Source of the DNA: Candidatus Krumholzibacteriia bacterium
GTDB taxonomy: Bacteria > Krumholzibacteriota > Krumholzibacteriia > G020349025
Assembly: GCA_046757105.1 (NCBI GenBank)
Contig: JBHHXQ010000051.1
Location: 1 to 12,796, forward strand
DNA length: 12,796 bases
Direction of reading: 5' to 3'
In this document: positions 2,698 through 9,413 of the stretch, piece after piece
Position numbering within the stretch: the first letter of the stretch is position 1
Layout: each line of letters opens with the position of its first letter
The notes under the pieces: model-generated
The model's input: the letters and a program-made list of their open reading frames with translations, nothing else
The model's database searches: none
What the model was told of the DNA's origin: nothing
Translations under genes and position numbers: made by a program

Positions 2698-3696
2698 CTA
2701 CGCCGTCGCGCACTCCGGGAGCAGATGCTTCACACCGATGCCGCGCAGCATCCGGTAGGTTGCGCGTAGCTCATCCTGACGCATGAGCTGCGGGTGGTCC
2801 GGGATGCTCCCGGCTTCGACCCAGCGAGGCGGGAAGAAAGCGACCCCCTGGATCAGAGGATAAGGCTCCAGGCCGAGGCTCCGGAAGAACGGGTTCATGA
2901 TGCGCAGGATCTCGTTGCGGCCGCCGTTCAGGAACCGGATGATGTCCACGGCTTGCGGCTTGGCCCACTTCCCGAGGACGTACGTCCGCTGCGGATCCGG
3001 CGCCGCATTGTTGGGCTCGTAGAAGAGCTCGAACACGTCCTGAAGCATGTGGCTGACCTCGGAGGCCCAGTCCAGCCTGCAGCGGATCTGCGTACCCAGG
3101 AACCTCTTGGGAACTCCATCCACATCCTTCAACGGAATCCCGTTGTCGGTGGTGGGCACTCCGGTCGCCAGCGCGAAGCGGTAGCGGTCCTGAGCATCCT
3201 TGAAGCCTTTGGCTTCGATGTAGCCGATCCGCGTGAGCCACGCCGGGCGGTCGAACAGTGGATAGATCGCGCGAACGGCGCGCTCATCCATCTCGCTCAG
3301 CTGACATGGGACGCGGATGAAGCGGTACGGCGCCCGGGTCACCGTCATGACCAGGCCCTCCTCGTCCGACGGCAGGCTGGCGAGACGGGCCCGGAGCTCG
3401 TGGACGCGGGTCTGGACGTCCTCGGTCAGCGCCTTCTTCAGGAGGTCGGCCAACCCCACCGCGTGCGACCTCTTGAGCTGCACCCCGTTCTCGGGCGAAC
3501 GATCGATCTTCTGCACGAGCACGAGGAGCGCCATGCCGCGACGCCCGCTCTCCTCGAGATCTGCGGCGACCCGTCGCAGCTGATCCGCGGTCTTCGGCTG
3601 CAACACCTCCCTGATTCTCGGTGCGCGCCGGAGCAGCGCTTGGATGCGCGCCAGAATCCGGGCGTCCTCGGGGAACAGCTCCTTCGCCAGAGTCAT
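2698..3696 (-). CDS. Hypothetical protein, ~332 aa if started at 3696, extensible to ATG 3870 (~390 aa); no domain recognised
   Basis: This is the C-terminal, protein-like part of the 1015-aa minus-strand ORF 2698..5745; the rest of that ORF is antisense to the + strand operon. From 'MTLAKELFPEDARILARIQALLRRAPRIREV...' onward third-codon positions are G/C-rich like the neighbouring genes. GGTGGGG lies 7-8 nt upstream of ATG 3696. The upstream in-frame stretch 3697-3870 ('MNPYIDASASCVLVTNRSNW...') uses many A/T-ending codons and has no Shine-Dalgarno sequence, so it may be non-coding. Stop TAG at 2698-2700. Confidence 0.5.
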   Translation of the reverse strand: MTLAKELFPEDARILARIQALLRRAPRIREVLQPKTADQLRRVAADLEESGRRGMALLVLVQKIDRSPENGVQLKRSHAVGLADLLKKALTEDVQTRVHELRARLASLPSDEEGLVMTVTRAPYRFIRVPCQLSEMDERAVRAIYPLFDRPAWLTRIGYIEAKGFKDAQDRYRFALATGVPTTDNGIPLKDVDGVPKRFLGTQIRCRLDWASEVSHMLQDVFELFYEPNNAAPDPQRTYVLGKWAKPQAVDIIRFLNGGRNEILRIMNPFFRSLGLEPYPLIQGVAFFPPRWVEAGSIPDHPQLMRQDELRATYRMLRGIGVKHLLPECATA

Positions 3697-4214
3697 CGGT
3701 GTCACCCCACCGGGATTCTCACTTGAAAGAAAGAGCAGCTTCTTGCACGTAGTACTGATCCTGTCACCGAGTTGAGACAAGAAATCCACGGGTTCCACCC
3801 CCCCGAGGCGCCAGTTCGACCTGTTGGTCACGAGAACGCACGAGGCAGAAGCATCGATGTAGGGATTCATGCGCGGGCCACGCAGTTCTTTGTAGCACCA
3901 GCTCGTCTCTGGTGGAAAGCGATTTTTCTCCGTGTCCAGCGCGACCCTGCGACACGCAGAAGCTCCTTGCGAGCCACGAGCACGCCACGCCGCGACAACC
4001 GCAAGCACCCGGCGCGAACTCCCGACAAACCGCGCAGTGTTTCCTCGGACACGTACCAGTCTGAGACACCGCCCCCCTCGGATCCCCGGTTCCTGCGGCG
4101 TTCTGAATCCAAAATGAAATCGCCGCCGACATGCGTCCCGCGTGCGACGATTCCGGCGCACGAACGAGCTGCGGCAACCGCAGACGAATCCAACCGCAAG
4201 CGAGGAGGTGTCCG

Positions 4215-4442
4215 ATGTCGGAAACCCAGGTGAAGACAGCGCGCGTCTCGGTTCTCTCCGAAGGCGAGTACGAAGTTCCCGTGCCGTCCGGGAGACCGAT
4301 GAAGCTGTCCGCGCTGCTGGACGAGCTGGGGCTCGCGAACAGGGGCGGCCAGCTCTACATGGACGGAGCCCCGGTATCTGGCAACGCCACGGTGAAGCCG
4401 GGAAGCGAAACCGTGGTGCTCCCGCACATCCGCGGGGGCTAG
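4215..4442 (+). CDS. ThiS/MoaD-like beta-grasp (ubiquitin-like) small protein with C-terminal Gly-Gly
   Basis: ATG 4215 is preceded by AGGAGG at 4204-4209 (5-nt spacer). The 75-aa product is 'MSETQVKTARVSVLSEGEYEVPVPSGRPMKLSALLDELGLANRGGQLYMDGAPVSGNATVKPGSETVVLPHIRGG*'. This follows the ThiS/MoaD pattern (xLSALLDELGL...DGAPV...PGSETVVLP..GG) with GG immediately before the stop. It is the first gene of an operon that ends with an E1-like enzyme. Confidence 0.75.
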   Translation: MSETQVKTARVSVLSEGEYEVPVPSGRPMKLSALLDELGLANRGGQLYMDGAPVSGNATVKPGSETVVLPHIRGG

Positions 4443-4455
4443 CCGATCCACGACG

Positions 4456-4488
4456 GTGCGGGGGCCGCGCGCCGCGGCTGCCCGCACC
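4456..4488 (+). promoter_or_regulatory. Stable intra-operon hairpin immediately after the Ubl gene (possible attenuator/partial terminator or processing site)
   Basis: 'ggtgcggg' (4456-4463) pairs with 'cccgcacc' (4481-4488). The intervening 'ggccgcgcgccgcggctg' is itself near-palindromic. It begins 14 nt after the Ubl stop codon, within the 112-bp gap before gene 2. Confidence 0.3.
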
Positions 4489-4554
4489 GGTCTCGAGATG
4501 CCAGCTGCGCCCGTTCTTCCGGGTGCCGCGCACCTGCTTCCAGGGGGAAAGCCC

Positions 4555-5127
4555 ATGTTCGACCTCGTCGTGAGCCAGAGCGCCCCGCCGGCGCACGTGC
4601 GGCATCGGGCCGTCGCGCTCCTGGCCGGTGTGCTGGCGACACAGGCGGCGCTGGCCTACGCGGACGTACGGCGCCGCCGAGACTATCTCCTCTCGGAGAT
4701 CGCAAGCGGTTCTCAGAACCACCTCAGGATCCTGGACGTCGATCTGCAACGGGCCGAGTCGCTTCTCGATGCGCTCGAGCACATCGCCCACCACCCCGAA
4801 TCGGAGGCGTCGGCCCGGCTGCGACCCCTCCTGCAGCTGGTGGGTGGCCCGGTGCAGACGATCGAGCTCGCCACCGACCGGCTCGGCGCGCGCGTGACAC
4901 CCAGCCATGCCCGCGACCGCAACCTCCGCATCCTGCTTCTTCCCGAGGGGGCGCGCCGCCGGCGCGTGCAGATCCAGGACCTGGACCGGGTCGACCCGCA
5001 AACGCTGCGCAATGCCGCGCCGCGCTGCTATGGCGAGCTCGGCCACTCGTACATCGCCTGGGCGCTCAACCGTTTGGACATGCGCTCGCTCGTCCTCATC
5101 GCGTTGGCGTACCTGAGGGTCAACTGA
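4555..5127 (+). CDS. Hypothetical protein (~190 aa), second gene of the Ubl-E1 operon; function unknown
   Basis: ORF 4456..5127 frame. ATG 4555 follows GGGGGAAAG (Shine-Dalgarno-like, 3-nt spacer). The product begins 'MFDLVVSQSAPPAHVRHRAVALLAGVLATQAALAYADVRRRRDYLLSEI...'. Same strand as the Ubl gene, 112 bp downstream of it. No recognisable catalytic motif. The start could be further upstream (GTG 4456, ATG 4498) but that would overlap a strong hairpin. Confidence 0.5.
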   Translation: MFDLVVSQSAPPAHVRHRAVALLAGVLATQAALAYADVRRRRDYLLSEIASGSQNHLRILDVDLQRAESLLDALEHIAHHPESEASARLRPLLQLVGGPVQTIELATDRLGARVTPSHARDRNLRILLLPEGARRRRVQIQDLDRVDPQTLRNAAPRCYGELGHSYIAWALNRLDMRSLVLIALAYLRVN

Positions 5128-5239
5128 GAAACCGGGGGCACGCCACCGCGGACGCCGGCGGCGCTCGCAACGACGAGCTGCGACACCCGCCTCGCCCCGC
5201 AGGACGCGCGTCATCCCCCAGTCCCGTGGAGGTCGCCTC

Positions 5240-6085
5240 ATGCTGCGGCGCTGGAACGAGTTCCTCCGGACACTGAACATCCGGGGACATCTCTTCGACC
5301 AGGACGGCCCGTACTCGATCATGCTCGGGAGCCGGCTCCTCAACCGCTCCATCTTCGCCCTGCGGACGGCCATATTCGGCGCCTGCATGGCGGCTCGCGA
5401 GACGTTGCGCAGCGCCGGCGACGTCCGCGAGCCAATGCTCATCGCCGATCCCGGCGCGGCGCGGCGCGCCTTCGAGAATGTGCAACGGGAGGGCGACCTG
5501 CTGCTGCTCGAGGATCTCCTGGAGGTCTTCCTCCCCACCGCGCTCCTGTACGAGACGGGATCCCCGCACGGCGAGACCGTGACGGTCGGGTTCCGCGACG
5601 AGGCCGCTCCCAACAAGATCCTGAAGGGACTGACCGCCGCCGGAGAGGTCGAGGATCCGCACAGGTACCGGGCGATGGGCGACGTCTTGCTCGTCCCTCC
5701 GGCCGTTCGCGGCGAAGGCCGCAAGCGCGGCCACTGGATCCGCACCTGCCAGCTCGACCCACCGCTGTGGAGCGAGCACGGCGGCCCCTACTGGCGGCTC
5801 GGCCAGTGGAACCTCTGGCGGCTCGACGTGCTCGGTTGGCACGAGCGTCTGGCGCTGGCCGCGCTGGTCGGGACGTCCGCCGAGGCCGCCGTCGTTCTCG
5901 GGCCGCCGAACCTGTTCCCGCACATCGGCTTCGTCGCCGAGGTCGCCCGCGAGATGGGACGCACGCTGATCGGTGTGCCGTTCGAGGCATGCCCGCCGGA
6001 GCTCCGGCTGGATCTGGAAGAGGCACGCCGGCGCAGTCTGTCGAGCGTGCAGCGCATGTTCAGGTTGTTCGAGGGGGTCATCTGA
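5240..6085 (+). CDS. Hypothetical protein (281 aa), third gene of the Ubl-E1 operon; tentative UBC/E2-like active-site motif around Cys170
   Basis: ATG 5240 is preceded by GGAGG at 5227-5231 (8-nt spacer). Stop TGA at 6083-6085. The segment 'DVLLVPPAVRGEGRKRGHWIRTCQLDPPLWSEHGG' loosely resembles the E2 'PP...HPN...G.ICLDIL...WSP' active-site region. This is pattern-level resemblance only. Confidence 0.6.
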   Translation: MLRRWNEFLRTLNIRGHLFDQDGPYSIMLGSRLLNRSIFALRTAIFGACMAARETLRSAGDVREPMLIADPGAARRAFENVQREGDLLLLEDLLEVFLPTALLYETGSPHGETVTVGFRDEAAPNKILKGLTAAGEVEDPHRYRAMGDVLLVPPAVRGEGRKRGHWIRTCQLDPPLWSEHGGPYWRLGQWNLWRLDVLGWHERLALAALVGTSAEAAVVLGPPNLFPHIGFVAEVAREMGRTLIGVPFEACPPELRLDLEEARRRSLSSVQRMFRLFEGVI

Positions 6086-6152
6086 TGCAACGCCCTGGCA
6101 GCCACGAAGCCATCCCCGGTCCCGGCGGTGATGCCGCCTTCCCGGGCTTCGG

Positions 6153-6812
6153 GTGGATGGAATCGAGAGCGACGTGCTGCGGCTCGAGGATGTCGAAGTG
6201 ACGCTGGTGGGCGCCGGGCGCGCCGGGAGCCAGATCGCACTCGTGCTCGCTCAGCTCGGCGTGCGGCAGCGCATCTACGACGGCGACCGCCTCGGGCCGG
6301 AGAACCAGGGACTGCAGCTCTACCGCAAGGAGGACGTGACGGCCGGGAAGCAGAAGGTCGAAGCGCTCCGGGAGCACATCGGCTCCATCGTGCCCGAGAG
6401 CTGCATCGAAGTGCACGCAGAGGCCTTCGAGGCGCGCGAGGACCAGCGACGCTCACCGGTCGTGGTGATTGCGGTCGACACGATGGAGACGCGGCGTCGC
6501 CTCTGGGAGCGCCTCAAGAACGCCAAGGGCATCCTGCGGCTCCTGGACGTGCGGCTCGGCCGCGCCCTCGTGCGCCTGCACGAGGTGCGGCCGTCGCACC
6601 CGCAGGACGTCGCCGACTACGAGGCTTCGTTGCACGACGACGCGGTGGCTGCGGCGGCCGACTGTGCCGATGAAGCCACGACGCACGCGGCGGCCGCGGC
6701 TGCGGCTCTCGTCGGAGGCGCTCTGCGGGGCCTCGTCGACGACCTGCCGCGGCCGCGCTGGATCGCGCTCGACCTCGACCGGGCGATCTGGGCGAGCGGC
6801 AAGACGACGTAG
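6153..6812 (+). CDS. Minimal ThiF/MoeB/E1-like adenylyltransferase (219 aa)
   Basis: The product begins 'MDGIESDVLRLEDVEVTLVGAGRAGSQIALVLAQLGVRQRIYDGDRLGPENQGLQLYRKEDVTAGKQKVEALREHIGSIVPESCIEVHAEAF...VVVIAVDTMETRRRLWERL'. This is a Rossmann GxGxxG, followed by the acidic D.D, the N.Q/R/K ATP-phosphate region, and the 'AVDT' Mg-site Asp in E1-family order and spacing. No CxxC zinc pairs and no rhodanese domain are present. A single late Cys sits in 'AADCADEA'. GTG 6153 is the first start after in-frame TGA at 6129; the Shine-Dalgarno sequence is weak. Stop TAG at 6810-6812. Confidence 0.8.
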   Translation: MDGIESDVLRLEDVEVTLVGAGRAGSQIALVLAQLGVRQRIYDGDRLGPENQGLQLYRKEDVTAGKQKVEALREHIGSIVPESCIEVHAEAFEAREDQRRSPVVVIAVDTMETRRRLWERLKNAKGILRLLDVRLGRALVRLHEVRPSHPQDVADYEASLHDDAVAAAADCADEATTHAAAAAAALVGGALRGLVDDLPRPRWIALDLDRAIWASGKTT

Positions 6813-6871: not shown

Positions 6872-8887
6872 CTACTGGAGCAACAGCATCTTCTTCGTGA
6901 AGCTCTGCGAATCCGTCTCGAGCCGGTAGAAGTACAGGCCTGAAGCGACCCGCTCACCGCGCTGGTCGACGCCGGTCCAGATGATCTCGTGTGTCCCGGC
7001 CACACGGCGCGTGTCCAGAAGAGTTCGAACCAGGGACCCCCTTGCATCGTAGATCTGCACGAGGACTTCGGACGGCCGCGCGAGGCCGAACCGTATGCGT
7101 GTGAGCGGATTGAACGGATTCGGACGGTTCTGCTCCAGGTAGGTGATCCAGGGTATGCTCTCGGTTCCGGTCGCGTACTCCGTGACGTCGCAGAGAATCC
7201 AGTGGCCGGGATCGAACTCGACACCCGTGACCGGATCGTCCAGCTCGACGAGAAACGCCTCGGTACGATCACCGACCCACAAGAGCGTGTCGATCTGCTG
7301 AACCGTAGTCGTGATCCGGAAGTCCACCGGCATCGTGTAGAGCTCCGCCTGCAGCTGGTCGATCACCAGACTCAAGTTCGTCTTGCCTTGCCAGGGATAG
7401 GAGTGCCAGGTCCATCTGTACTGCAGGCGATCCTCTCGGGTGAGCCATTCGTCGAAGAACCAGTCCAGTGGCGCGCCGTAGACGTCCTCGCAGACCCCCT
7501 CGAAGTCGTCGGTGCCGGCCATGCCGAAACGGAAGCGGGGATCGGCCACGTAGCTCTGCAAGATCTGGACGAACGAGCCGTCGCCGACGATGTGGCGGAG
7601 CATGTGCAGGACCCAGGCCGCCTTGTTGTAGACGACGTTGTCGAAGTAGTACCAGCGATCGGTCGCGTCCGGGTCCCGGAGGATCGGCCCCTGCCATTGG
7701 CCGGGCCGGTCTTTGCCCTCCATGTACGACCTGAGCTTCCCGGCGCCCTCCAGGTGCTCGAACCACAGCGCCTCGGCGTAGCTCGCGAATCCTTCATTCA
7801 GCCAGATGTGCGTCCAATCCTTGCAGGTGATGAGATCGCCGAACCACATGTGGGCCAGCTCGTGGGCGAAGACCCAGTCATAGGAATGGTTTCCGGTGAC
7901 GAGGGCAGAGCCATAGCTCGTGAGGGTCTGGTGCTCCATGCCGCCGCCGAGGTTGCAGAGGGCCACACCATACTTCTCGTCGACGAAAGGGTAGGACCCG
8001 AACGTCGTAGAGAAGAAGTCGAGCATCGGCACGGTGACGTTGAAATCCTCCTCGGCCGCAGCGACCAGGTCGGGATAGACGTAGTGAGTCACGGCCATGG
8101 TTTCCCCTGGGGCGTGAACGAAGGAGTCGTCCAACCGCACGTATTCCGAGGCGGCGATCGACGCCAGGTACGTCGCCATGGGGTAGTTCTCCCGCCAGTG
8201 GAATCGCCTGTAGGGGACTCCCCAGCGCGTCACATCCTCAGATCCGAGATGATCCCCGTTCGAAGCGGCAAAGAGGACGGCGGGAACGGCGAGATACAGA
8301 TCGAAGGTGGCCTTGTCGTCCGGATAGTCCTTGCACGGCCACCACGACCTGGCGCTCCAAGGCTCGCTCAACGAGAAGATCACCGGCGTCCCTTGATGGG
8401 TTGCGAAGAACAGCCCGGGGGCGCTGGCCGATCCCGGATTGCCGCCGAAACCGATCTCGATCGCGATCGAGTCGCCATCGGCGAGACCGGCGGGCAGGTG
8501 GATCGAGACCAGATCGGCCGGGCGACTCCACGCGAGCGTATCGCCGCCGGCCACCGTCACGGATGAAACGGTCAGGACATCGTCGGCGTCCAGATCGATC
8601 GTGTGGAGGCTGTCCACGAGGCTCATCACGGTGGCTCTGACGTAGCCCTCGACCGCCTGGTTGCCGGGGTCGAATGCCAGATCGAGTTCGTAATGCAGCG
8701 CGTCGAAGAGCAGTTGCGTGGGCGTCGGGCTCGGCGCGAGAAGAGCCTCGTGTCCCGGTCGCAGCTTCGCCCTGGCGATCTCCATCTTCCGGAGGATGTC
8801 GCCGTGGACGTCCTCGAGTGGAGCCTGGGCGAAAAGGGGAGCCGAAAATGTCGAGATGAACAGGGCTGCCAGAAGTGCAGGTCTCAC
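6872..8887 (-). CDS. Secreted M1-family aminopeptidase (aminopeptidase N-like) with a C-terminal T9SS (Por) sorting domain
   Basis: 671-aa ORF. N-terminal signal peptide 'MRPALLAALFISTFSAPLFAQA'. 'GGMEH' exopeptidase motif. Zinc site 'HELAHMWFGD...WLNEGFASY' (HEXXH-18-E). C-terminal ~85 aa 'NRPNPFNPLTRIRFGLARPSEVLVQIYDARGSLVRTLLD...GTHEIIWTGVDQRGERVASGLYFYRLE...KKMLLLQ' matches the Por secretion C-terminal sorting domain pattern. GTG start at 8887 with GAGGA upstream. Confidence 0.9.
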   Translation of the reverse strand: MRPALLAALFISTFSAPLFAQAPLEDVHGDILRKMEIARAKLRPGHEALLAPSPTPTQLLFDALHYELDLAFDPGNQAVEGYVRATVMSLVDSLHTIDLDADDVLTVSSVTVAGGDTLAWSRPADLVSIHLPAGLADGDSIAIEIGFGGNPGSASAPGLFFATHQGTPVIFSLSEPWSARSWWPCKDYPDDKATFDLYLAVPAVLFAASNGDHLGSEDVTRWGVPYRRFHWRENYPMATYLASIAASEYVRLDDSFVHAPGETMAVTHYVYPDLVAAAEEDFNVTVPMLDFFSTTFGSYPFVDEKYGVALCNLGGGMEHQTLTSYGSALVTGNHSYDWVFAHELAHMWFGDLITCKDWTHIWLNEGFASYAEALWFEHLEGAGKLRSYMEGKDRPGQWQGPILRDPDATDRWYYFDNVVYNKAAWVLHMLRHIVGDGSFVQILQSYVADPRFRFGMAGTDDFEGVCEDVYGAPLDWFFDEWLTREDRLQYRWTWHSYPWQGKTNLSLVIDQLQAELYTMPVDFRITTTVQQIDTLLWVGDRTEAFLVELDDPVTGVEFDPGHWILCDVTEYATGTESIPWITYLEQNRPNPFNPLTRIRFGLARPSEVLVQIYDARGSLVRTLLDTRRVAGTHEIIWTGVDQRGERVASGLYFYRLETDSQSFTKKMLLLQ

Positions 8888-9340
8888 GGAGTGTTTCCTC
8901 GTCGTTCACCCGGGCGACAAGCATAGCACGGAAACCCGCGCCCCGCGCCGTTCACATCTCGCGTTTCGAATGGACATCCCATCTGGCCGCGGGTGGATCG
9001 AGCCCGACAGGACGCTTGCAGGTCATGGTGCAACCTGGTTTCCAGGATGGTGCGGGCAGGTCGCCGAAATGTCTGGGGCTTCCGGGACCACACCGGGGGG
9101 CTGGTTTCGCTTCTCCCCGGCGCTGCACGGCGGCAGCCGGAGAATGCCGGACCCCGGGCTCCCCGCCGGATCGGCCCGCAGGAGTGCCGAAAGCCGATCC
9201 GTGGGGGACCGGCTGTGCGTGGCACGACGCGGAGGCGCACCTCCAGCCCCATGTGACCTACCGGGAGCGCCCGGCGACCCCCAGAACCGCTTGATTCTGT
9301 GGCCGTTCCACGATGGCGCGGGGTACGGCCGGGAGCCAGG

Positions 9341-9390
9341 TTGACATGCAGGGCAGATTGTACTATTCAACTAGAAGAGTAGTATTCTAG
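9341..9390 (+). promoter_or_regulatory. Candidate promoter (TTGACA-17-TATTCA) plus overlapping palindromic operator CTAGAA-N8-TTCTAG upstream of the GntR gene
   Basis: TTGACA at 9341-9346. TATTCA at 9364-9369 after a 17-nt spacer. Inverted repeat ctagaa (9371-9376) and ttctag (9385-9390) sits in an unusually AT-rich patch 'gtactattcaactagaagagtagtattctagagc' immediately 5' of the GntR start. The geometry is typical of an autoregulated GntR operator. Confidence 0.35.
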
Positions 9391-9413
9391 AGCAGTGAGG
9401 GTCGGTGGAAGCC

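Follow-up and report, generated by a model that had tools for sequence, protein, structure and literature searches.

What does a bacterium do with a ubiquitin-like protein, and with an enzyme of the kind that activates one, when the genes between them belong to no recognisable family? The question is raised by a 12,796-nt stretch of DNA, here called the window, which is an entire contig of a metagenome-assembled genome (MAG) of a Candidatus Krumholzibacteriia bacterium. Four genes on its + strand encode, in this order, a ubiquitin-like protein (Ubl) ending in Gly-Gly, two orphan proteins (g2 and g3) and an adenylyltransferase of the ThiF/MoeB/E1 type (E1). A first interpretation, the sequence-only reading, saw in them a possible variant of ubiquitin-like conjugation serving antiphage defence or signalling, with a sulfur-carrier pathway as the alternative. 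Are these genes real, and how many genes belong together? Does the operon contain an E2-like carrier? Is it part of antiphage defence? The answers reached here are that the cassette is a real, previously undescribed variant on the Ubl/E1 theme, and that the conserved unit is a cassette of five to six genes, larger than the four first noted. It could represent a new pathway, either for tagging proteins or for transferring sulfur. The best explanation, to which we give slightly less than an even chance, is a lineage-specific relay in which Ubl passes as a thioester from E1 to g2. The four core genes are:

Ubl, 4215-4442, + strand: 75 aa, ThiS/SAMP2-like, with the C-terminus ...HIRGG-stop.
g2, 4555-5127, + strand: 190-aa orphan, modelled as a helical hairpin followed by an alpha-beta4-alpha-alpha domain with an invariant Cys158; a candidate Ubl carrier, E2-like by topology alone.
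g3, 5240-6085, + strand: 281-aa orphan whose modelled fold matches nothing solved; translationally coupled to E1 in relatives.
E1, 6153-6812, + strand: adenylyltransferase of the ThiF/MoeB type with one domain; the assembled frame encodes 219 aa, but translation probably begins at ATG 6085 (242 aa).

The case for a conserved unit comes from ten distinct related loci that were read (L002, L003, L006, L008, L011, L012, L013, L016, L017 and L018). The order Ubl-g2-g3-E1 is kept in all ten, L008 being cut inside g2 with its Ubl and upstream region outside the visible sequence. At least ten distinct loci share this set of genes and its order although their E1s are just 53-75% identical, and the arrangement lies far beyond chance. 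Where does the unit begin? Upstream of Ubl and facing away from it lies the gene div, and its homologues occupy the same divergent position in L002, L003, L006, L011, L012, L013, L016 and L018. They encode ~340-450 aa, are 24-47% identical to the window protein and are present wherever upstream sequence exists (the copy in L013 appears split). Identities to the window in L006 are 69% for E1, 52% for g2, 40% for g3, 46% for div and 52% for Ubl, and in L012 they are 56%, 30%, 36%, 28% and 49%, respectively; the five genes diverge in step, which indicates that they are inherited as a unit. The sequence-only reading had set div aside as a divergent gene of unknown function. No family has been found for it, with Pfam (also at E-values up to 10, with 7 members), NCBIfam and PDB profile searches giving no match, but it is a conserved member of the module and not a bystander. 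An N-terminal winged helix, which had been an impression from reading the div sequence, is unsupported.

Is the unit complete with five genes? Directly 3' of E1, a sixth gene is found in L011, L012, L013 and L018, four loci from among the more distant ones. Its products, of 229-260 aa, carry the motifs HELGH and NL(L/M)P...LDG, and score 29.1, 27.0 and 24.2 bits against PF02163 (Peptidase_M50), for which the cut-off is 27.2. The earlier statement that no deubiquitinase is present is right for the window, but these four relatives carry an M50-like metalloprotease after E1. At the other end, an intact DUF72 gene stands beside div in L002, L003, L006 and L016 and not in L011-L013, that is, in closer relatives only. 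In the window, Pfam places DUF72 profile positions 1-60 in the open reading frame (ORF) 2335-2580 and positions 63-187 in ORF 1958-2623; what had been called a decayed gene is DUF72 split by one frameshift. The indel ahead of E1 (described below) means that this frameshift may likewise be an assembly error rather than the mark of a pseudogene. The literature on DUF72 yielded no functional lead. These further features are:

div, 2698-3870, - strand: divergent orphan of ~363-390 aa, with an uncertain start (ATG 3870 or GTG 3831/3798/3789).
div-Ubl intergenic region, 3871-4214, no strand: presumed to bear the promoter; non-coding by third-position GC content (GC3).
DUF72 gene, 1958-2623, - strand: split by a frameshift near 2335-2345; membership in the module is doubtful.
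M50-like gene, L011 8708-9397, L012 8729-9478, L013 8711-9463 and L018 4074-4856: encodes a small, site-2-protease-like membrane metalloprotease directly after E1; absent from the window.

One of the M50-like copies weakly matches a model for a daptide intramembrane protease. Genes of the MacB/FtsX type, encoding ATP-binding cassette (ABC) proteins, lie downstream or close by in L006 (12302-16630), L016 (8935-13385), L018 (4993-6217) and L012 (13070-15807). No such genes are found in the window, L002/L003, L011 or L013, and the link to the cassette may be functional or mere shared synteny. Could the small protein then be the precursor of a secreted product, of the kind of a ribosomally synthesised and post-translationally modified peptide? 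Its C-terminus would be activated by the ThiF-like enzyme, as in MccB or PaaA, it would be modified by g2 and g3, trimmed by the M50 protease and exported through MacB/FtsX. The protease after E1 in four relatives (with the one daptide-like match), the FtsX/MacB genes, downstream of the cassette in three relatives (L006, L016, L018) and nearby in a fourth (L012), and the presence of PaaA among the PDB matches of E1 would all agree with this. However, the small protein is conserved over its full length, has a beta-grasp-like pattern with GG at the very end, and lacks a leader/core layout. The window and several relatives have neither the protease nor the transporter, and E1 (219-270 aa) is without the N-terminal peptide-clamp domain of MccB/PaaA. 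A peptide-precursor function is thus considered very improbable.

How secure are the genes themselves? The GC content of the window is 66%, at which spurious ORFs are common, and the coding potential of each ORF was therefore checked directly. GC content at codon positions 1, 2 and 3 is 0.67/0.47/0.84 for Ubl, 0.77/0.46/0.87 for g2, 0.72/0.48/0.89 for g3 and 0.79/0.45/0.90 for E1, a strong third-position periodicity throughout. The four + strand ORFs are real coding genes, standing where the sequence-only reading had placed them. The NCBI locus tags ACE5G2_03340 and ACE5G2_03345 are exact protein matches to the window. Shine-Dalgarno-like motifs precede the starts of Ubl (AGGAGG, 7 nt upstream), g2 and g3, and no terminator-like site was found inside the Ubl-g2-g3-E1 cluster. 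The region equivalent to 3871-4214 measures 176-578 nt in relatives; no motif is clearly kept between it and the window's copy, which contains no sigma-70 consensus, and no Rfam element was matched in or around the operon, this intergenic region included.

The gaps between the four genes in the window measure 112, 112 and 67 nt, as first reported. Yet 112 nt is not the tight spacing that had been claimed, and the third gap is probably not real. Why not? L001, an independent Logan assembly that represents the same organism at 99.8% identity, reads GGGG (1414-1418) where the window has GGG (6148-6152, ~6151). With the fourth G, E1 starts at ATG 6085, overlaps the stop codon of g3 and has 242 aa. 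An overlap of g3 and E1 is found in every related locus (nine), and this, together with the GGGG of L001, makes a homopolymer error or a polymorphism the most likely source of the 67-nt gap. The additional N-terminal residues are unconserved across the family, so that the catalytic domain is complete in the 219-aa form. The unvarying overlap between g3 and the start of E1 also suggests that the two proteins are made together and act together.

What kind of protein is the Ubl? The exact Gly-Gly ending of its 75-aa product was confirmed, and neither the window copy nor any of the nine intact homologues departs from this GG (IRGG, LRGG, IHGG, VHGG, LVGG); the L013 copy, extended or frameshifted, was left out of the nine. 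Pfam SAMP2 matches five of six Ubl members (best E-value 5.2e-5) and ThiS three of the six, and the window protein itself lies below the gathering thresholds of both (15.8 bits vs 22.5 for ThiS; 15.5 vs 27 for SAMP2). Searching the PDB with the Ubl profile ranked SAMP2 first, with an alignment that is end-to-end and weak (E-value 0.1), and hhalign aligned Ubl with E. coli ThiS colinearly up to the GG (probability 52%, E-value 1.4e-4). These family matches are weak but consistent, and suggest that Ubl is ThiS/SAMP2-like with a predicted beta-grasp fold. Its tail has the form ...(I/L)(R/H/V)GG, and trypsin acting on the copies with Arg would leave a ubiquitin-style GG remnant. Lysine is not conserved in the folded part, where several homologues have none.

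The assignment of the last gene to the ThiF/MoeB/E1 adenylyltransferases held up well. E1 passes Pfam ThiF (PF00899) with 55.3 bits against a gathering threshold of 28.1 (E-value 6.7e-15), and the same domain is present in all but one of 40 clusters homologous to E1. Invariant in the family are GxGRxG, D43, N51, Q55, K68, D109, R114 and C171. The adenylation residues align with the motifs of ThiF, MoeB and UBA3, including the Mg-binding Asp of xxDxx, and only the Arg of the 'RQ' motif varies, the window clade having Leu at this place and other members K/R/H. The adenylation core and nucleotide site are, as judged from these alignments, intact. Against E. coli ThiF and MoeB hhalign gives a probability of 93% (E-value 3e-7, 156 columns), and PDB matches include UBA3, UBA5, TcdA, UBA6, PaaA and Cap2 at E-values of ~1e-6 to 1e-4, with 9egb as the best entry. 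Only the N-terminal half of E1 (~110-160 residues) aligns with the solved E1s, and every curated NCBIfam model (ThiF, PRTRC ThiF, MoeB, UbaA, 6A-MBL Cap2) stays far below its cut-off, for example 52 bits vs 159 for ThiF/MoeB and 19 vs 450 for UbaA. With one domain and a total length of 219-270 aa across the family, it is the very small enzyme that had been described, a genuine single-domain E1 of ThiF size. It carries no rhodanese domain, and since the CYRC zinc motif of ThiF aligns with YEAS and the C-terminal CxxC is absent, the family is without a structural zinc site. By sequence, E1 is a deep, separate branch of the ThiF/MoeB/E1 superfamily.

C171 aligns with C184 of ThiF, the crossover-loop Cys, and may be catalytic. 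Cys184 of ThiF takes part in sulfur transfer. Does the cassette, then, move sulfur? This is the main rival of the relay. A novel sulfur-carrier pathway would have E1 adenylate Ubl, a persulfide on Cys171 and/or Cys158 convert it to Ubl-COSH, and g3 and/or div insert the sulfur into a metabolite, a cofactor or RNA. Several observations lean this way: the only detectable relatives of Ubl are ThiS and SAMP2, the best curated matches of E1 are ThiF-type sulfur-carrier adenylyltransferases, with C171 at the place of Cys184, and the housekeeping chromosomal context with its vertical-looking inheritance is as expected of biosynthetic genes. Thioredoxin-like genes also lie nearby in three relatives, although they are missing in the window and in the distant loci. 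But where are the enzymes that would supply or use the sulfur? No rhodanese, cysteine desulfurase, PP-loop, radical-SAM, pyridoxal-phosphate-dependent or MoaE/ThiG-like enzyme is kept with the cassette, and neither g3 nor div conserves a Cys or a His or shows a recognisable cofactor motif. The NCBIfam ThiF/MoeB matches cited above fall far short of their cut-offs as well. Taken together, a sulfur-carrier function is possible without being probable.

Is one of the two middle proteins a carrier of the E2 kind? They had been described as unrecognisable, and in all searches g2 and g3 have indeed proved to be orphans. An E2-like Cys motif, however, had been assigned to g3, and here the picture has changed. 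The Cys in question (IRTC166QLDPP in the window) gives way in homologues to A, K, Q, S, G or V, and the conserved Cys lies in g2 instead, where C158 is invariant. An alignment of 23 g2 sequences, reaching down to 26% identity, leaves only A85, C158, G160 and N190 unchanged. Neither Pfam, NCBIfam, PADLOC nor an hmmsearch of PDB sequences gave any match to g2, and when 1.84 billion representative proteins were scanned in full with a HMMER profile, only 18 members came back, all of ~190 aa and forming one closed family. The AlphaFold model of g2 is confident (mean predicted local distance difference test, pLDDT, 89) and shows a long helical hairpin (13-79), then a helix (81-93) and a meander of four strands (100-142), next a loop of lower confidence that bears C158, and finally two further helices (160-172 and 176-189). 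C158 lies 16 residues past strand 4 and two residues ahead of helix 160-172. This order of elements would be that of the E2/RWD superfold, with the Cys at the expected place. A Foldseek search with the model showed a single above-noise tendency, towards coiled-coil kinetochore chains. Against approximate sequences of three eukaryotic E2s hhalign gave a probability of 0.1%. Sequence comparison accordingly gives no link between g2 and E2s, with Pfam, NCBIfam, PADLOC, PDB hmmsearch and hhalign all negative, and an E2 nature of g2 is a hypothesis whose one solid support is the invariant Cys. The Bil system offers a precedent, in that its E2 had also escaped recognition from sequence and at first bore the name 'CEHH' (PMC10557695). 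The idea that g2 and g3 are paralogues was also rejected (hhalign probability 0.2%).

What is left for g3? A UBC-fold E2 with a catalytic Cys it does not appear to be. Its invariant polar residues are R163, E179, R186, E202, T212, R237 and R241, and conserved Cys or His are absent. The structure model is confident and matches no solved fold. In most homologues an Ala/Pro-rich, poorly conserved insert of low complexity, ~60-70 residues long, falls between window residues 61 and 62 (alignment columns ~77-150); the window copy and three others lack it, which explains why window g3 has 281 aa compared with 315-350 aa in relatives.

How could these parts work together? In the proposed relay, E1 would adenylate the C-terminal Gly of Ubl, the conserved Cys171 in its crossover loop would capture the acyl-adenylate, and Ubl would be handed on as a thioester to Cys158 of g2. 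The g3 protein could be a stoichiometric partner of E1 or an adaptor (E3-like or a specificity subunit), while div (~390 aa) might be a regulator or a target. In the relatives that have it, the M50-type membrane metalloprotease could serve trimming or deconjugation, or act as an effector. Ubl would end up in a protein conjugate or on a different acyl acceptor. The relay is supported by the superfamily membership and catalytic residues of E1, by the invariant GG of the ThiS/SAMP2-like Ubl, by the conservation of both E1 C171 and g2 C158, by the confident g2 model and the Bil precedent, by the constant g3/E1 overlap in relatives and the co-divergence of five genes, with order and orientation kept, in at least ten loci, and by the lack in any locus of a thiamin, molybdenum-cofactor, Cys or tRNA-thiolation partner, of a rhodanese and of a cysteine desulfurase.

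A number of points weigh against it. The window contains neither a JAB nor any other recognised deconjugating enzyme, and the alignments show no conserved Lys as a fixed acceptor in any protein of the module. The nearest relatives of Ubl, ThiS and SAMP2, are sulfur carriers or dual-function proteins, and the ThiF residue with which C171 aligns acts in sulfur transfer, not in conjugation. No E2, UEV or RWD protein matches g2 significantly, be it in sequence or in structure, Pfam giving no similarity to UQ_con, Prok-E2, RWD or UEV with 16 members at E-values up to 10, and the analogy with E2s consists of a string of secondary-structure elements and one Cys.

Must there be an E2 at all? Archaeal UbaA conjugates SAMPs alone, and a JAMM partner is typical of sampylation loci. 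By analogy, E1 could by itself activate and conjugate Ubl, possibly with a dual role as sulfur carrier, and g2, g3 and div would then be substrates or regulators. Among families and in the PDB alike, Ubl is matched best by SAMP2, E1 has a single domain like UbaA and MoeB, and no recognisable E2, E3 or deubiquitinase is present, all of which would suit such a scheme. Yet the UbaA model reaches just 19 bits of the 450 needed, the JAMM partner is absent, and the invariant Cys of g2 and the strict coupling of g3 to E1 suggest catalytic or stoichiometric partners. E2-independent modification is thus judged improbable.

The thioester relay can also be taken a step further, though the result is tentative and on balance rather unlikely. 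The cassette would then be a vertically inherited housekeeping, non-defence conjugation pathway of the Krumholzibacteriota with an independent origin, in which a zinc-less E1 passes Ubl from Cys171 to g2 as a novel thiol carrier, g3 delivers it to targets, and div, with or without the M50 protease, completes a signalling circuit. Its E2- and E3-type parts would be unrelated to the eukaryotic ones, or unrecognisably diverged from them.

How widespread is the cassette, and does it travel with defence genes? Homologues form 15 clusters for g3, 16 for g2 and 41 for E1; all are rare and come from metagenomes and MAGs only. In a GTDB scan with one genome per species g3 was found in two of 185,579 species. 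The named sources are all Krumholzibacteriia/Krumholzibacteria or one 'Latescibacterota' MAG, and no literature link of Krumholzibacteria to ubiquitin-like systems was found. Across the ten loci the neighbours are genes for NADH dehydrogenase (nuo), fumarase, MacB/FtsX ABC transporters, peptidases, cupins and methyltransferases, the sole mobile gene seen being an ISL3 transposase after E1 in L017. PADLOC reported nothing on the cassette beyond a generic E1 core, and neither g2 nor g3 has relatives in 50,697 phage and 72,556 plasmid records. A scan of IMG/VR with the E1 profile was negative, the patterns used being poor. In the corresponding metagenome scan, which used low-complexity patterns (HAAAAAAAL), one short true member and one unrelated locus (L015) were returned. 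The proposal of a defence system is not supported by these results: the chromosomal neighbours are housekeeping genes, homologues are lacking in the phage and plasmid collections, and the neighbourhood check shows no sign of a defence island. The data fit a vertically inherited lineage trait rather than defence-island cargo.

The unrelated cassette in L015 (3074-7405) sits on a contig of 57% GC and is PRTRC-like or mobile-element-borne in look. Its gene set is wholly unlike that of the cassette: first comes a protein of 469 aa that contains a JAMM-like motif, HSHPG...S..D, and ends in ...ERLGG, then an E1-like one of 248 aa, sharing 31% identity with E1 of the window, and a ParB-like one.

Does the cassette correspond to any system already described? 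The sequence-only reading had noted the lack of ThiG, ThiH, MoaE, CysM and JAB partners and a composition unlike that of Bil or Bub. Both points stand, and the second can be widened, as the cassette fits neither Cap2 nor PRTRC. Of the enzymes that go with known sulfur-carrier pathways (thiamin, Moco, CysO, Qbs, Ttu), no ThiG/ThiH, MoaE, CysM, TtuA, rhodanese or desulfurase was present among the called genes and precomputed Pfam domains over 8-10 kb of the ten loci, nor in the window, and no JAB was found in the window and nine related loci. With the ThiF-ThiS and MoeB-MoaD pairs the cassette shares a single-domain E1 of ~220-260 aa, a small GG-ended partner, a Cys at the place of ThiF C184 and the adenylation motifs, but it has no user enzyme of the ThiG/ThiH/MoaE type, no rhodanese domain and no zinc CxxC, and scores far below the equivalog cut-offs. 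The archaeal SAMP/UbaA system has the best match to Ubl (SAMP2) and, like the cassette, an E1 of one domain and nothing recognisable as an E2 or E3. In contrast to it, the cassette is bacterial, is far from the UbaA model, lacks a JAMM protease and includes three conserved orphans, one with an invariant Cys.

Among the bacterial conjugation systems, Bil also brings a Ubl and an E1 together with a small Cys protein not recognisable as an E2 from its sequence. It requires, however, a JAB peptidase and a multidomain IAD-AAD-CYS E1 (PMC11601596), whereas the E1 of the cassette has one domain, and neither a JAB nor a defence or mobile context accompanies it. Bub (6E/DUF6527) resembles the cassette in its diverged Ubl/E1/E2-type operons, its unusual chemistry and its orphan-looking parts. 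Bub operons are characterised by DUF6527 serine proteases, Ubl-E2, E2-E1 and JAB-E1 fusions and Ser/Tyr oxyester chemistry (PMC11601596); the cassette has no DUF6527 and no fusions, and conserves Cys in E1 and g2. Finally, the E1 core resembles the PRTRC model TIGR03736 (E-value 1.9e-9) and the PADLOC E1-E2 models (E-value 3e-10), and CBASS Cap2 is among its PDB matches. Unlike in PRTRC, TIGR03736 gives 37.2 bits where 144.75 are needed and no cassette locus contains ParB; unlike in CBASS, the cassette has no CD-NTase and no E1-E2 fusion.

A few other genes share the window with the cassette. A PAS-domain sensor histidine kinase (H-box HEIRTPANAV; 1 to ~1400, - strand) runs off the left end of the contig and is not kept beside the cassette in other loci. 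On the other side, convergent to E1 with ~60 nt between the stops, lies an M1 aminopeptidase (6872-8887, - strand) that ends in a sorting domain of the FlgD-Ig/T9SS type; proteins with FlgD_ig tails are met again close to the cassette in relatives and are probably a lineage trait. Between this gene and one of the GntR family, ~500 nt (8890-9400) lack a clear coding signal in the GC3 scan.

Why does such a cassette matter? To our knowledge, the bacterial Ubl/E1 operons that carry out conjugation have so far all been tied to antiphage defence (Cap2, Bil and Bub), and were recognised through their E2, JAB or DUF6527. The cassette described here keeps just the Ubl-E1 pair, its other parts being proteins without family, one of them with no known fold, and it resides on the ordinary chromosome of one uncultivated phylum. 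Should it act in conjugation, it would widen the origins and uses of ubiquitin-like signalling and bring new E2- or E3-type folds. Should it instead be a sulfur-carrier pathway, it would point to an unknown thio-metabolite or modification.

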